Assembly: GCF_054482595.1 (NCBI RefSeq)
Contig: NZ_CM137008.1
Direction: 5' to 3' (one strand)
Length of the DNA stretch: 64,000 nucleotides
Shown piece after piece: positions 32,401 through 38,400 of the stretch. Made by a program: the position numbers. Each line of letters begins with the position of its first letter. Position 1 is the stretch's first letter.

Positions 32401-35400
32401 GCGGCTCTACCATATCTCCTATGAGCAACGTGTTAGCAGAGCCAAGCCACAACTCTAATTTTAATACATAATGAATGATAATAATATTAAAAATTTTCTG
32501 TGTAACTAATTTACTATATGGTTTCTGATAAGAATCATTGCAAAGATTAAACAACTTGTATTACATTGACAGTTAAGCAGTTAATTTTATCACCTCTAAA
32601 ATATATCAGCATCTAGCATGCAACCTATCAAAATGGAGATTTTTATGACTAAAAAACCATGGGAAAGAAGACTTAAAGATTTATCGCACTTGCTCAAATG
32701 CTGCATTGATACATATTTTGACCCTGAATTATTCCGCTTGAATTTGAATCAATTCCTCCAAACTGCAAGAACAGTAACATTTATTATTCAAAAAAACAAA
32801 AACCAGATTATAGGATATGACATTTGGTATAACAATAATGTTATTGAAAAATGGAAAAATGATCCATTAATGGCTTGGGCTAAAAATTCTCGCAATACGA
32901 TAGAAAAACAAGGCGATTTAGAAATGTATAGCGAGGCAAAGGCTACTCTTATTTCATCTTACATTGAAGAAAATGACATTGAGTTTATTACAAATGAAAG
33001 TATGTTAAACATTGGTATAAAAAAGTTAGTCAGACTTGCACAAAAGAAATTACCTTCATATTTAACTGAATCATCTATTATTAAATCAGAAAGACGATGG
33101 GTCGCTAATACGCTAAAAGATTACGAATTATTGCATGCCTTAGCTATAATCTATGGCAGAATGTATAACTGCTGTAACTCTCTTGGCATACAAATAAACA
33201 ATCCAATGGGTGACGATGTGATTTCGCCAACATCATTCGACTCTTTATTTGATGAAGCCAGGAGAATAACTTATTTAAAATTAAAAGATTACTCCATAAG
33301 CAAATTGTCATTTAGCATGATACAATATGATAATAAAATAATTCCTGAAGATATTAAAGAGCGTCTAAAACTGGTAGATAAGCCTAAAAATATCACTTCG
33401 ACAGAAGAGTTAGTTGACTATACAGCCAAGCTTGCAGAAACGACTTTTTTAAAGGACGGTTATCACATTCAAACATTAATTTTTTATGATAAACAATTCC
33501 ATCCAATTGATTTAATCAATACAACATTTGAAGATCAAGCAGATAAATATATTTTTTGGCGTTATGCAGCTGACAGAGCCAAAATAATAAATGCCTATGG
33601 CTTCATTTGGATATCAGAGCTATGGCTCAGAAAAGCAAGCATCAACTCCAATAAACCAATACATACAATGCCAATTATAGATGAAAGACTTCAGGTAATT
33701 GGAATTGATTCAAATAATAATCAAAAATGTATTTCATGGAAAATAGTTAGAGAAAACAAAGAAAAAAAACCGACTTTAGAAATATCAACAGCAGACTCAA
33801 AACATGACGGAAAACCATATTTCATGCGTTCAGTCTTAAAAGCAATTGGCGGTGATGTAAACACTATGAACAATTGAGTCATAGAACTTCCATTATTCTC
33901 CTGAAGATAATAATCGCCAAATAAACCAATACTCAGCTTTACAATATACTAACTAACCGCAGAACGTTATTTCATACAACGTTTCTGCGGCATATCACAA
34001 AACTATTATTCCATAACAGGGATTGCAGGCCACTCAATATCAGGTGCTACTGATGTATCAACTCGGTTCAGCAATACCCGATATGTCTTCCATGCCGCCA
34101 GTAACAATATCTCCTCCTCCGTCGCAATATCCAAATCTACCGCATCCTGAAGCGGCGCAATATGCTCACTGGCTACCCGCATGAGGCTGTTTTTTGTTTC
34201 TTCCGCCTCCCGTATACGAAACTGTTTTTCTGCTTCTGCATCTTTCACCCAGGTTGTGCCGTTCCACTTCTGATATTCCCCATCCGGCGACAACCAGGTG
34301 ACATTTTCCGGTAATGAGCCGAGTTCAGAAATAAATAACGCGTCCCCTGATGCCACGTCATAAACTGTTTTACCCCGATGGTCTTCAACAAGATGCCACG
34401 ATGCCTCATCACTGTTGAAAACAGCCACGAAGCCAGCCGGAATATCTGGCGGTGCAATATCGGTACTGTTTGCTGGCAGACCTGTATGAGGCGGAATGTA
34501 TGCGTCACCTTCACCAATAAATTCATTAGTTCCGGCCAGCAGATTATAAATTGTTATGGTCCGTGGTTGTTCACTCATTCTGAATGCCATTATGCAAGCC
34601 TCACAATATAGTTAAATGCGATGTTTTTGACGGTGTTTTCCGCGTTACCAGCAGCGTTAACGGTGATGGTGTGTCCGTGTGAGCCAATCGCAACGGAGTG
34701 CGTATGAGCACCAATACCGACAGTATGCGCGTGTGCACCTGCACTTGCAGCAGTACCTGACACCGGGTGGGTATGCGCTCCGGCTGACGATGTGCCAGTA
34801 CTCGAGCCTGCACGAGACGCACCTTTGAGGGCTTTATCGCCCTGCTCGGTATTGCCAGATGGGTAACAGGCAACCGTGTGTGTATGTGCCCCTGCAGAAG
34901 CAGCCGTACCACTGACACTATGGGTGTGCGCTCCGGTGTTATTCGTGGATTTAGTGCCGTAATCAAACGACGATGTGGTTTTCGTCCCCAAATCCGTACT
35001 GGATGCACTGGCACTGTGGGTATGCGATTTAATGCCGTCCTGTTCCTGAGATAATACGGCACGACCACTGGCGGGCTTGCCCTTAATCGTCCAGCCACGC
35101 ATATCAGGGATCACGCCTGACGGATAAGCGGCTGCAAGTTTCGGGTAGGCAGATTTGTCAAAAGTCTGCCCCTGCATCAGGGCATAGCCAGACGGAACGG
35201 TATCTGATGGCCACGGGATTGGTGCACCGACTGGATAAAACTCTGCAGGAGGATGAGCCGAGGTGTAAAGCTGCGCCCACGGCGACCAGTTTGCGTCGGT
35301 CGTATCCCGTCGTGAACGAATAAATGCCGGAGCATGAGCACCGCTTGTACCACCCCAGCCGATGAGTAACTCACCTTCGCCAACGGCTGTCATCCCTTTC

Positions 35401-38400
35401 AGGTGAATGATATTTCCATACGCTGTTGGATATCCGTTGTTATACACCTCGTATAACTCAAGACCTGTTGCCCCCTGCGTATTGTCTGTCAGCGCGGTTA
35501 CCCGACCTTTTGAAGCCAGATTAACTGATGATACTGCTGTTCCACCTGACGGTAACGCCCCGATCTCTGATGCCGTTGGCTTATTTCTGGAGTTATAGTC
35601 CCTTCGCCAGCCAGGTGAATAATATGTTCCGTGATTAATATAGGTAAACTGGGCGTTAGTTGTTCCACCACCAGTGGAGGTGGTCGGTGTGGTAATGCGG
35701 ATCGTCATCGCTGACTTTATCCCCATTACTTCAATGACAGCTCCGGCGAGATGAATATTACCGCAGTCAGTATCAGTAATGATTTTATTATTGCCATAAG
35801 ACCAGGAACCCTTGCACATCCAGTATGGATGGTTAAATGCTCCCTGAGAATCCAGCCACTCGATAAACTGTGCAGTCGTCCAGTTTCCTGTTGTTGTGCT
35901 TACTGACCCACCGAAGGCACGGCAGGCACCAATATTTTTCGTAAAGGTATCTTTGCCAGGGATATCCGCACCGTTCTGATCTTTCTGCAGACGTTTCTCA
36001 GCATTGTCATTGGCTGCTTTTACTGCCTTTGGCGTTGCCGCCAGCGTTTCAGACGTGCTGTTGGTCGCGCTGCTTAACTGGATTATCCCTTTCTGTGCTG
36101 TCGTTGCATCCTGTGCGGTGTATTTCCCGTTAGCCAGGTCATACGCGGCCTTAACGGCTTTTGGCGTTGCCGCCTGTGACTCGGAAGTGCTGTTGGTCGC
36201 ACTGCTGAGCTGTACTATCCCCTTTTTCGTCGTGCTCGCATCCTCAAGCGCCACGGCGGATGCAATATCCTCTGCACGTTTTGCCGCTGTCTCAGCGCGC
36301 GTTGCTGCAGATTCCGCCGTACTTTTGCTCTGAGCTGCTGCCGTCGCACTACCAGCTGCCTCTGTCGCCTTCGTGGATGCCGTCGTGGCGCTACCCTTCG
36401 CTGCTGACGCCTGTCTGGTCGCCTCATCTTTTGAAGCAGACGCCGATGATGCCGATGACGCTGCCGAACTGGCTGACGATGCGGCAGCCGTTTTTGAGGA
36501 TTCTGCACGGGTTTCCGACGCTTTCGCGTTCGTTTCGGATGTCTTCGCTGCGGAAGCTGACCTCGCTGCTGCGCTGGCCTGTACAGCGGCTTCGCCAGCA
36601 TTCGTTGTGGCTGTTGAAGCAGACGATGCAGCACTTTCTGCCGACTTTCCGGCAGCGGTGGCACTGGCTGAGGCCTGCCCGGCACTTGTTGACGCGGCAC
36701 TGGCAGATGATGCAGCCGCTGTTTTTGAGCCTGCCGCAGCTGAGGCACTCTGTCCCGCTGCCGTTTCAGAAGACCTGGCGTTCGTCTCGGACGTCTTTGC
36801 CGCCTTCGCGGAATTTCCTGCCGCCGTTGCCGAGGAAGCGGCACTACTGGCGCTTGATGATGCGTTCGTTTCTGATGATTTCGCTGCCTCTTTTGAGGCC
36901 GCCGCATCCCGGGCTGAGGTGGCAGCTTCTGACGCCTTTGTGGTCGCGGCGGATGCAGAAGTGGCTGCAGATTTTTGTGACGCTGCCGCATTCGTTTCTG
37001 ACGTTTTCGCCGCACCGGCACTGGTAGCTGCCGCGCTTTTTGAGGACTCTGCAGCAGCAGCACTTTTCGATGCTTCACTGGCCTTTGTTGATGCCGTTCC
37101 TGCGCTGGAAGTCGCTGACTGAGCCGACGAAGCGGCCTGTCCGGCTGACGTGCTGGCTGCACGTGCTGAATCTGCAGCATCAGTCGCATGGGTTGCCGCC
37201 TCACGGGCAGATGTGCTGGCATCACTGGCTGACTTCTTCGCGGCTGCCGTGTTCTGTGCCACCACGGACGCGTTACGCGCCACCTCTTCCACCATCAGTT
37301 CAAAACGTCGCAATGCCTCCGGACGGGCATCATCCTCCGTCATCGCACCGAGAAAATCATTCAGCGTACCGGGTTGGGAATCTTCATACACGGTGATGGT
37401 CCCGGCATGTGACGGCGGGAATCCTTCCACCAACAGAATAACGCTGTACTGACCGTACTCAACGTCCATGCTGTAACGCCCGGCTTCATCCGGATTTTCT
37501 GAGGCCAGCGTGTTCACCACCACCGTGGTGCTGTTACGTTTTGCTTTCAGCTGGATTGTGCAGTTCTGAACCGGTTTTCCTGTGCCGTCTTTCAGTACAC
37601 CTGAAATCTTTACTGCCATATTCACCCCACAAAAAAGCCCGCCTGAACCGGCGGGCTGTCATAACACTGTGTTACCTGGCTAATCAGAATTTATAACCGA
37701 CACCCACGATGAAACCGTCAGTGCGCCAGTCGCCACTGCCGGAACCTTCATAAGCGACATCAATGGCCACCGATTCGGTCGGGTTAAACTGCACGCCAGC
37801 TCCCCACGCCAGAGACGTGTTGCTGTGGCGACCGTCATCACTTCCGGTCAGCACATCGTGCGTTTTCCCCTTGCTGTCGGTCACCTGCAGATAATCCCCG
37901 GAGAAGGTCGAAACACGGCTGTAAGCCACCCCCGCCATCGCATACGCGCTGAACCATTCATTCACGCGCACAGACGGCCCCGCCATCACGCTGAACCAGC
38001 GGTTACGCACGGAATCTTCATGCCAGCGGGTATCGCTGTAATGCGTTTTTTGTTCATCTTCTGCGTCGGCATAACTGAAAGACGTAATCAGCCCCAGCGT
38101 GTCCGTAAATTCATAACGGTATTTCACGTTAATCCCGTTCAGATTATCGCTGCCGGGTGCGTTCGTACGGGCATGAAGATACCCTGCGCTCAGTGTGGAC
38201 TGATGTTCAGACGCCCATGCAGGCGCACCGGATACGGCCAGACAGATGGCTGCGGAAAAAATGGCTGCACAAACTTTACGCATAATTACCTCTCGCTTTT
38301 CTGCAATAAAAAAGGCGCCATTTCTGGCGCCCGTATTGGGGTTATAAAAATTTCAACTGATACTGATACCGGATGCGGCTTTTTTCGTTACCGAGACCAT

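Follow-up and report, generated by a model that had tools for sequence, protein, structure and literature searches.

The stf gene examined here is intact and otherwise ordinary, a side tail fibre gene of the lambda type built from known interchangeable modules. We consider it highly probable that it encodes the side tail fibre of a lambda-like prophage and that its product is a mosaic of a lambda anchor and shaft, an exchangeable central cassette and a tip of the lambda/T4 type (Table 1). That the gene is a mosaic had been proposed in a preliminary description, and alignments of its modules to lambda, Mu and T4 fibres bore this out. Relative to lambda, the real mosaic pieces are a two-knob cassette related to Mu S', a hypervariable head loop and a difference in shaft length.

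Table 1. Coordinates of stf, its modules and its neighbours.
Feature	Position (nt)	Strand	Basis
stf CDS from its probable ATG	34590..37619	-	1009 aa plus stop; ORF list, Shine-Dalgarno-like motif, RefSeq, PDB 9E7M
StfN, N-terminal tail-attachment domain, aa 3-96 (ORF numbering)	37338..37619	-	PF08400; PDB 9E7M/9MGH
Heptad-repeat coiled-coil shaft, aa ~114-462	36240..37286	-	~48 uninterrupted heptads, consensus xAxxSAx; autocorrelation, heptad table
Shaft segment without Ur-lambda counterpart, 105 aa (exactly 15 heptads), aa 306-410	36396..36710	-	Alignment, windowed identity
Two tandem 44-aa phage fibre repeats, aa 462-505 and 506-549	35979..36242	-	PF03406 Phage_fiber_2; DNA repeat D2
Exchangeable central cassette, aa ~541-794: knob A (aa 561-695), knob B (aa 696-795)	35243..36005	-	PDB 8JU3, AF2, Foldseek
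T4 gp37-type tip, putatively receptor-binding, aa 796-1011: collar, needle with seven HxH, head	34593..35240	-	PDB 2XGF; PF07484; PF03335
Hypervariable head loop between HxH motifs 3 and 4, aa 917-948	34782..34877	-	Alignments to Ur-lambda, T4
tfa, tail fibre assembly chaperone gene, 194 aa	34006..34590	-	PF02413 Caudo_TAP (E 5e-43); phrog_105
GC-rich hairpin then T-run, intrinsic terminator-like, between lom and stf	37630..37660	-	Read from sequence

The preliminary description had reported a full-length stf in the window (the whole 64,000-nucleotide stretch that was analysed), and the ORF list of the window contained it as an uninterrupted frame of 1011 aa that starts at a GTG and occupies positions 34590-37625 of the minus strand. 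Translation almost certainly begins two codons inside the GTG ORF, with the ATG at 37619, because a Shine-Dalgarno-like GGGGTGA, read from the sequence, precedes it, the resulting protein starts with MAVKISG, as does the lambda Stf chain in PDB 9E7M, and the RefSeq CDS WP_175617248.1 (3030 nt) is annotated as 1009 aa. Stf is thus, as had been claimed, much longer than its lambda counterpart (1009 aa, versus 774 aa for Ur-lambda Stf). It matched the Pfam domains phage_tail_N, two Phage_fiber_2 repeats, Collar and Phage_fiber, the PHROG tail-fibre family phrog_295 (E 6e-250) and, by sequence in the PDB, lambda StfN (9E7M), Mu S (5YVQ), Mu S' (8JU3) and T4 gp37 (2XGF). The start of tfa overlaps the stf stop codon by 1 nt (translational coupling), and Tfa was 91% identical to lambda Tfa. 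The gene order J-lom-stf-tfa-ea47, established from ORFs and Pfam assignments, is as in lambda, and J-lom-stf-tfa was matched in both the lambda record KT232076 and PhiR26_1. The terminator-like hairpin between lom and stf sits just upstream of the stf ribosome-binding site. The prophage bearing stf is integrated in the nuc gene of the IncI2 mcr-1 plasmid pSM107_MCR.

The anchor of the fibre is that of lambda. PF08400 (phage_tail_N) matched aa 3-136 of Stf (E 9e-72), the lambda 'Tail fiber protein' of PDB 9E7M/9MGH matched aa 3-96 (E 4e-52) and was near-identical over these 94 aa, and identity to Ur-lambda in 30-aa windows of StfN was 93-96%. The role described for StfN is docking on the tail tip; in Ur-lambda the side fibres are trimeric, number four per virion and speed up adsorption, and the structure of the N-terminal collar has been solved by cryo-EM (PMC12617516). 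By homology with Ur-lambda, the Stf product would form trimers and its StfN would dock on the tail tip, where in Ur-lambda four fibres (12 chains) make a collar.

The Ala/Ser/Thr tract that follows had been described as low-complexity sequence. The tract is present, but it is a heptad coiled coil of ~48 heptads rather than low-complexity sequence. Its Ala/Ser-rich part (aa 125-462, nt ~36240-37253) is 38% Ala, 24% Ser and 12% Thr, and autocorrelation gave z values of 7.5-10 at each multiple of 7 up to a lag of 56, and of no more than 1.7 at all other lags. Ala occupies heptad position 2 in every one of the 47 heptads scored, with the register unbroken throughout, and the DNA repeats of the shaft (families D1 and D3) are spaced at multiples of 21 nt. 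The homologous region of Ur-lambda has been described as a proximal coiled coil and modelled as trimeric (PMC12617516), and the ~350 Ala/Ser heptad residues here would likewise make a rigid proximal shaft. The heptad register continues through the 105-aa segment that Ur-lambda lacks, and we infer that these 15 extra heptads would add ~15 nm to the shaft relative to lambda. Conservation of whole heptads is not a strict rule of length variation, because the shafts of 36 of 116 close relatives differ from that of this Stf by a length that is not a multiple of 7.

A duplicated unit of 129 bp, or 43 aa, had also been reported beyond the shaft. The tandem repeat is real, but its period is 132 nt, or 44 aa: the DNA copies (36006-36112 and 36138-36244, family D2) were 75% identical and the units at aa 462-505 and 506-549 shared 29 of 44 residues, whereas an offset of 43 aa gave matches at only 6 of 43 residues. 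Although Tandem Repeats Finder did not detect the 132-nt repeat, PF03406 (Phage_fiber_2, a model of a 42-residue repeat) matched two stretches with E 5e-37 and 125.7 bits, against a cut-off of 22. The first copy is of the lambda type, while the second copy and the NGADIP linker after it are of the Mu S type, with residues 99-175 of Mu S (PDB 5YVQ) aligning to Stf aa 494-570. Together, the two 44-aa repeats may act as hinge and linker.

Repeats of this kind call for some caution. Assembly duplication had been named at the outset as a finding that would undo the interpretation; however, both copies are present also in independent phage genomes, and since they are only 75% identical, the tandem repeat cannot be an assembly duplication. 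The wider explanation, that the repeats and extra length are assembly or duplication artefacts or that stf is a decaying remnant of a cryptic prophage making no fibre, draws on the tendency of repetitive Ala/Ser-coding DNA to be mis-assembled, on the many E. coli stf genes that are fragments and on the frameshift that inactivated stf in the laboratory strain lambda PaPa (PMC12617516). We regard it as very unlikely, given the uninterrupted frame and the unbroken heptad register, the complete lambda-like gene set of a prophage bounded by a 15-bp direct repeat, and a layout that is collinear with that of independent phages (~96% nucleotide identity over ~95% of the length, in records whose hosts are E. 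coli K-12, E. coli C or ECOR13) and of a second E. coli genome (99.3%). Unlike orf401/orf314 of lambda PaPa, the frame is a single ORF collinear with the full-length Stf of Ur-lambda and PhiR26_1. A functional Stf fibre is plausible because the frame is intact, tfa is coupled to it and a ~96% matching stf occurs in sequenced phages.

The central cassette is one of the parts in which the gene departs from lambda. Residues 178-334 of the Mu G(-) fibre S' (PDB 8JU3) aligned to Stf aa 541-697 (E 4e-68), and knob B had no PDB match by sequence. An AF2 model of the cassette had a mean pLDDT of 85.6. In a Foldseek search with this model, 8JU3 ranked first, aligned across all 240 columns with E 4e-20, and the fibres of T4 (gp34) and of R-pyocins came next. 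Because a single chain was modelled whereas the protein would be a trimer in vivo, the placement of the domains relative to one another is unreliable (TM 0.49, rmsd 11.7 Å against 8JU3). Two globular knobs of the Mu S' / T4 gp34 type would be expected to come after the fibre repeats. The two knobs were also found separately, and in either order, in other fibre proteins. The stf of the SM107 chromosomal prophage is 95% identical to the plasmid prophage gene up to aa ~540 and 96% identical from the collar on, with an identical tip protein, but its central cassette is unrelated. Module exchange is thus visible between two prophages of one strain. The mosaic gene was in all probability put together by recombination, with conserved linkers (the fibre repeat and the collar start) as the sites of exchange.

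The resemblance to Mu takes in the fibre repeat and the NGADIP linker as well as the first knob, and the predicted two-knob fold and 8JU3 match over the full length. However, the part of Mu S that is similar to Stf starts no earlier than residue 99, Stf has lambda StfN in place of a Mu-type N-terminal region for baseplate attachment, and the knobs, which end the fibre in Mu, are followed here by a gp37-type tip. Because the homology between the central module and Mu S/S' runs across the point that marks the G-segment boundary in Mu, and the host plasmid also has a shufflon, one could imagine a fibre that switches in the manner of Mu, with a DNA invertase swapping its distal part as in the G segment of that phage or in the e14/P1 systems. 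We give this idea almost no credence. The shufflon belongs to the plasmid pilV, lies more than 7 kb away and is outside the prophage; a search of the 64-kb window for gix/hix-type crossover sites gave no match at three or fewer mismatches and none to the AAACCNNGGTTT core; neither the ORFs nor the annotation showed an invertase gene adjoining stf/tfa; and downstream there is no inverted alternative fibre/chaperone cassette, tfa being followed by an ea47 homologue.

The last 216 residues (aa 796-1011) matched PDB 2XGF, the tip of T4 gp37, with E 6e-88 and 72% identity, with PF07484 (Collar) at aa 800-847 (E 7e-12) and PF03335 at aa 895-908. The GAHTH motifs, which the preliminary description had compared to the HxH repeats of T4 gp37, thus go beyond resemblance, since the tip is directly homologous. 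Seven HxH motifs lie at aa 868, 900, 914, 951, 965, 974 and 983 (nt 34671-35024), and include all five GAHxH motifs (aa 898, 912, 949, 963 and 972); the 14 His residues of the seven HxH were invariant across six aligned sequences (T4, lambda and four lambdoid fibres). Seven irons are present in the T4 needle (PMC6957217), and from the conserved His and the T4 structure one would expect the seven HxH per chain to coordinate as many iron ions along the axis of the trimer, with the fibre ending in a collar-needle-head tip of the gp37 type. A T4/lambda tip family with a chaperone gene directly downstream has already been described (PMC9659904; Magaziner & Salmond 2022); its chaperones, of the gp38/Tfa type, are of 184-207 aa, and tfa here encodes 194 aa and lies directly downstream. 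Tfa would be expected to aid trimerisation of the tip.

The His-rich C-terminus had been read as a sign of a different fibre lineage. This did not hold: Ur-lambda Stf has the same tip (79% identity, with one extra HxH), so that the tip, being native to Ur-lambda Stf, is not evidence of foreign descent, and the lambda/T4 tip relationship is long established (PMC12617516, PMC9659904). Acquisition of the gp37-like terminus from a non-lambda, T-even type lineage, which would make this Stf unusual, is accordingly very improbable in our view, in spite of the 72% identity to T4 gp37 and the occurrence of the tip family in myoviruses, siphoviruses and others. The Ur-lambda tip is closer than that of T4, the closest tips (85-100%) are all from lambdoid fibres, and windowed comparison found the collar and distal needle near-identical to lambda's; rather than being specific to the present gene, the lambda/T4 relationship goes back to the ancestry of the lambda Stf family. 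The likeness to T4 gp37 (residues 811-1026) covers the collar, the seven HxH, the C-terminal strand and the immediately downstream chaperone gene, whereas the remainder of gp37 is unrelated, the head loop differs, and the chaperone here is of the lambda Tfa type instead of the gp38 type.

Set against Ur-lambda Stf as a whole, the gene shares the J-lom-stf-tfa locus, StfN, the Ala/Ser heptad shaft, the first fibre repeat, the collar, the HxH needle and the same C-terminal 50 aa. It differs in its longer shaft, in having the second fibre repeat, in a central region (aa ~502-795) that is unrelated to lambda's and related to the Mu S/S' fibre, in its head loop, and in having seven HxH to lambda's eight, one SFDYGTKTTG unit being missing here. 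The Ur-lambda domain boundaries given in PMC12617516 do not map cleanly onto the sequence-based boundaries used in this comparison, for which the modules were delimited by aligning Stf with its counterparts in Ur-lambda and PhiR26_1. The Stf proteins of PhiR26_1, PhiR68_2, mEp460_ev081 and PhiR42_1 (~1023 aa) are collinear over the whole length and are 86-100% identical in 30-aa windows everywhere except in the head region (aa ~901-960), where identity falls to 36-50% and theirs is 14 aa longer. The architecture occurs in 7 phage records, in 636 of 5426 E. coli genomes (at least 80% coverage) and in more than 8000 protein clusters.

OmpC is the receptor for the lambda side fibre, and OmpC/LPS for T4. 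In T4 gp37 the receptor contacts are tip residues between H931 and ~958, and by alignment and mutational data the head loop of Stf maps to gp37 residues 932-964, the subdomain contacting OmpC/LPS (PMC6957217). The 32-aa loop between HxH 3 and HxH 4 would, by analogy, make the reversible first contact with a host outer-membrane receptor. The loop is unlike those of T4, lambda, PhiR26_1 and PhiR29_2, and the receptor cannot be read from the Stf sequence. Almost every residue shown to be critical for binding in T4 is different in this loop. Of 5426 E. coli genomes, 11 had the Cys-containing head allele, which no sequenced phage shared, and no phage record exceeded 87% identity across the whole tip. 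Only the putatively receptor-contacting loop of the tip is a rare, uncharacterised allele.

In phage Mu, knob domains of this type make up the distal part of the fibre, which determines host range. A speculative and unlikely extension of the mosaic reading is that one side fibre is bivalent, the Mu S'-type knobs keeping a lateral LPS site while the rare head allele binds an outer-membrane protein other than OmpC. If this were true, each side fibre would have two receptors, and the cassette and the head could evolve host range independently.

The Stf family, each of its modules and its mosaic mode of evolution were already known, as was the protein itself, in RefSeq. The fibre gene is less unusual than its setting, a complete lambda-like prophage carried by an IncI2 plasmid with mcr-1. 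The practical value of the gene is modest and lies in this setting, in the rare head allele and in what it shows of module exchange. The two prophages of a single strain, which have anchor, shaft and tip in common and a different central cassette, show cleanly, in a natural setting, where side fibres of the lambda type exchange modules, namely at the fibre repeat with the NGADIP linker, the collar start and the head between HxH 3 and HxH 4. Such a map is useful for engineering chimeric Stf proteins to retarget host range.

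The stf gene was 100% identical to that of plasmid pSM107_MCR of E. coli SM107 (NZ_CP130669.1, 111,450 bp, circular), of which the window is the reverse complement. This IncI2-type plasmid carries mcr-1.1, located outside the window, and a complete lambda-like prophage of ~48.5 kb, from int to the ea genes, inserted in the plasmid thermonuclease (nuc) gene. Window positions ~29,680–64,000 are prophage and 1–29,680 plasmid backbone; two nuc fragments (one at 29377–29679) flank the prophage, and a 15-bp direct repeat, CTTTATGTGAATAAG, was present at both junctions, with its right copy at 29666–29680. 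A full-text literature search found no paper describing this arrangement, in which an IncI2 plasmid with mcr-1 harbors a lambda prophage. The neighbors of stf keep the lambda late-region order (J, lom, stf, tfa, then a 419-aa ORF on the other strand), the tfa start codon overlaps the stf stop codon, and Tfa shares 91% identity with its lambda counterpart, with both Stf and Tfa lacking a family in NCBIfam. The 419-aa ORF, in which a Pfam domain was absent, is a homolog of the lambda b-region ORF at the same position, listed there as a 419-aa hypothetical protein and probably ea47; its RefSeq start lies 9 codons later, giving 410 aa.

Features of stf and its neighborhood, with the evidence for each
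Feature	Window nt	Stf residues	Strand	Evidence
J	38353..41829			lambda late-region order
lom	37684..38283			Ail/Lom, E 8e-126
stf ORF	34590..37625	1011 aa from GTG	-	ORF list
N-terminal anchor StfN		3-96	-	lambda StfN chain 9E7M/9MGH, E 4e-52; Pfam phage_tail_N, E 9e-72
Heptad shaft		~114-462	-	residue autocorrelation and in-register heptad table
Central cassette	35243-36005	~541-794	-	Mu S' match; AF2 and Foldseek
Tip		796-1011	-	T4 gp37 receptor-binding tip 2XGF, E 6e-88
Collar (Pfam)		800-847	-	Pfam match
tfa	34006..34590			Caudo_TAP, E 5e-43
419-aa ORF (3' of tfa)	32618-33877		+	phrog_19262 (unknown function), E 9e-292

The preliminary description of stf as a full-length ORF was upheld, as a single uninterrupted frame was found. 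Residue numbers here follow the GTG-ORF numbering (1–1011), from which two must be subtracted for the probable true protein; residue n lies at nt 37625-3n+1 to 37625-3(n-1) of the minus strand. The sequence 5' of stf, GGGCTTTTTTGTGGGGTGAATATGGCAGTA, contains in order a GC-rich hairpin and T-run after lom, a GGGGTGA Shine-Dalgarno-like motif, and an ATG at 37619. This ATG with its Shine-Dalgarno-like motif, the resulting N-terminus MAVKISG (the same in Ur-lambda Stf and the lambda 'Tail fiber protein' chain of PDB 9E7M), and the RefSeq annotation of Stf as 1009 aa (WP_175617248.1) indicate that the real product is very probably 1009 aa long. The hairpin (AGCCCGCC...GGCGGGCT) and the TTTTTT that follows it lie between lom and stf at window 37630–37660 (-), directly before the stf ribosome-binding site, and a terminator-like element there would tie stf/tfa expression to antitermination or read-through. 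Several alternative-frame ORFs inside the shaft (window 36004–37452; one of 336 aa on the minus strand, and plus-strand frames of 255, 249, 118, 109 and 100 aa) encode Arg/Gln/Pro-rich or Ala/Asp/Phe-rich sequences; we set these aside as genes, as they are most likely by-products of the stop-poor, GC-rich GCN/TCN/AGC repeat DNA.

The StfN collar of Ur-lambda sits at the gpV-gpM junction and comprises twelve domains, three of which are joined to each trimeric fiber by 10-residue linkers; the Ur-lambda region homologous to our shaft is described as a proximal trimeric coiled coil (PMC12617516). The Ala/Ser-rich tract that had been described here was present (aa 125–462, nt ~36240–37253; 38% Ala, 24% Ser and 12% Thr), but its description as low-complexity was not appropriate, since autocorrelation revealed a strict heptad repeat. 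Shaft autocorrelation was 0.39–0.45 at all lags divisible by 7, through lag 56 (z 7.5 to 10 relative to shuffles), and did not rise above background at any other lag. All 47 heptads had Ala at position 2, 37 had Ser at position 5 and 34 had Ala at position 6; the consensus, xAxxSAx, kept an unbroken register throughout, and repeats at the DNA level were spaced at multiples of 21 nt. Relative to Ur-lambda Stf, the shaft contained an additional 105 residues (aa 306–410), exactly 15 heptads, which would add ~15 nm at ~0.15 nm per residue. A rule by which shaft length varies only by whole heptads among relatives was rejected: among 116 close homologs with both anchor motifs, the shaft differed from that of this Stf by a multiple of 7 in 80 and by other lengths in 36, making whole-heptad change a tendency.

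A tandem repeat follows the shaft, as had been proposed, although its period was one residue longer than the 43 aa (129 nt) first assigned to it (6/43 matches at offset 43, and 29/44 at offset 44). The two 44-aa units (aa 462–505 and 506–549) share 29 of 44 residues, and the DNA copies at 36006–36112 and 36138–36244 lie 132 nt apart. Tandem Repeats Finder reported just a trivial 13-nt array and not the 132-nt repeat, which was recovered by a separate repeat search and by Pfam, where two Phage_fiber_2 repeats were matched (PF03406, E 5e-37). An assembly duplication is excluded because the copies are merely 75% identical, and both copies were also found in independent phage genomes. Copy 1 and the sequence after it resemble the single copy of lambda; copy 2 and the next linker align with Mu S residues 99–175 (PDB 5YVQ, E 5e-16), and also with Mu S'. 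We infer that the repeat may be the seam of a lambda-type and a Mu-type fiber, each bringing its own copy of the conserved linker motif.

The Mu resemblance continues into the central cassette, where aa 541–697 matched residues 178–334 of the Mu G(-) fiber S' (PDB 8JU3, reportedly described by Mori et al. 2024 in Virology) at E 4e-68. Residues 698–795 had no PDB relative by sequence, and knob B alone (aa 690–806) gave zero matches in the PDB even at E 10. With aa 561–800 as the query against 1.84 billion cluster representatives, 972 proteins were retrieved, and these resolved the cassette into two independent modules, A (aa ~561–695) and B (aa ~696–795), which occur elsewhere in fiber proteins alone, duplicated, or in either order. 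An AF2 model of the cassette, built from a 30-sequence alignment, had a mean pLDDT of 85.6 and two beta-rich domains. Its best Foldseek match in the PDB was 8JU3 (E 4e-20, all 240 columns), followed at ~E 1e-3 by the T4 proximal fiber gp34 (4UXG, 5NXH) and R1/R2 pyocin fibers (6CL5, 6CL6); the fold of knob B was assigned solely through this model and Foldseek. On the basis of these matches, the cassette domains are ordinary 'knob' domains of trimeric fiber shafts. For the ligands of the Mu S' knobs, we relied on PMC11821841 (a secondary citation). Although it shares this module with Mu S', Stf is not a Mu-type fiber, because its N-terminus is that of lambda and a gix site and invertase are absent; an invertible, Mu-like fiber was similarly rejected because any gix/hix-like site was absent.

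The repeated His motifs reported near the C-terminus were confirmed as seven HxH motifs (aa 868, 900, 914, 951, 965, 974 and 983), five of them GAHxH, and their likeness to gp37 had been correctly recognized but understated, with the tip as a whole matching 2XGF. Pfam also matched a 14-residue Phage_fiber motif in the tip. In an alignment of six tips (A3), this tip was 72% identical to T4 gp37, 79% to Ur-lambda Stf, 85% to PhiR26_1 Stf, 93% to PhiR29_2 Stf and 100% to the Stf of the SM107 chromosome. All 14 histidines of the seven motifs were invariant in these six tips, and the lambda Stf tip carries an eighth HxH motif. Such histidines coordinate seven iron ions along the T4 needle, and mutation of the T4 gp37 tip subdomain (H931 to ~958) abolishes infection (PMC6957217). 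The matching stretch here, aa 917–948, was hypervariable in both sequence and length across the six fibers, and the head loop is unlike that of T4 or lambda. This head allele is rare, being found in 11/5426 complete E. coli genomes with a 183-nt probe, and none of 50,697 phage genomes had a whole tip >87% identical. The head loop also contains a cysteine, C920 (window 34866–34868), close to HxH motif 3 and absent at that position from the five other aligned tips; in a trimer, three such residues could come close to the three-fold axis.

The His-rich tip had been taken as a sign of recombination with a different fiber lineage. This was not borne out, because the lambda Stf family has this tip as a native part, and the tip thus offers no evidence of such recombination; a passage of PMC12617516 traces knowledge of the tip in lambda Stf to the Ur-lambda description, and the T4/lambda tip family has been surveyed in more than 200 phages (PMC9659904). 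Stf is instead recombinant in its central Mu-S'-like cassette, in its head loop and in the shaft indel, as seen in windowed identities of Stf to three fibers. Identity to PhiR26_1 Stf was 36–50% at aa 901–960 and 86–100% in all other windows. Ur-lambda Stf was mostly 80–96% identical over aa 1–300 (63% in one window), 73–93% at aa ~421–480, 86–100% at ~811–900 and 90–100% at 961–1011, with the 105-aa shaft gap, an unrelated aa ~481–790 and a different head. The SM107 chromosomal Stf was mostly 90–100% identical over aa 1–540 (73–86% in a few windows) and 100% at aa 811–1011, but unrelated at aa 541–790 (10–26%). Aligned as DNA, the two SM107 prophages (plasmid and chromosomal) share 95.4% identity between J and nt 36006, are non-homologous over 36005–35243, and return to 96.2% identity from 35242 through tfa. 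The identity map and this DNA comparison show that at least three units assort independently. One is the anchor together with a shaft that has length variants, another is the central cassette, and a third is the tip, whose head is itself hypervariable. Exchange junctions lie in the conserved fiber-repeat/NGADIP linker and at the start of the collar.

The chromosomal locus (NZ_CP130667.1, 2081356–2090538), compared with window 34028–39537, adjoins yodB/zinT and belongs to a second lambdoid prophage, whose Lom (WP_040234777.1) and tip protein are identical to those of the plasmid prophage. Its stf is 95–96% identical on either side of an unrelated 763-nt cassette, and the pair represents a naturally occurring exchange of cassettes between prophages resident in one strain.

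This architecture is common: at least 80% of the gene was covered in 7 phage records and 636/5426 E. coli genomes, and Stf matched >8000 protein clusters, many of ~1023 aa and one with 4246 sequences. By homology, Stf is assigned to the lambda Stf family and the T4/lambda tip family, and is an uncharacterised member within these already known fiber families. A functional side fiber, as previously suggested, is plausible because stf has an intact frame, tfa is likewise intact, and the gene layout is collinear with that of stf in sequenced phages. By homology to Ur-lambda and T4, trimers would attach to the tail tip through StfN, the coiled coil would keep the distal half off the tail, the repeat region would serve as a hinge, and the knobs would lengthen the distal rod. 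Folding of the tip would require Tfa. The iron-stapled needle would display the head loop for contact with an outer-membrane receptor, for which OmpC is a precedent (PMC12617516, PMC6957217), and this contact may provide a rapid and reversible initial adsorption, ahead of the binding of J to its own receptor.
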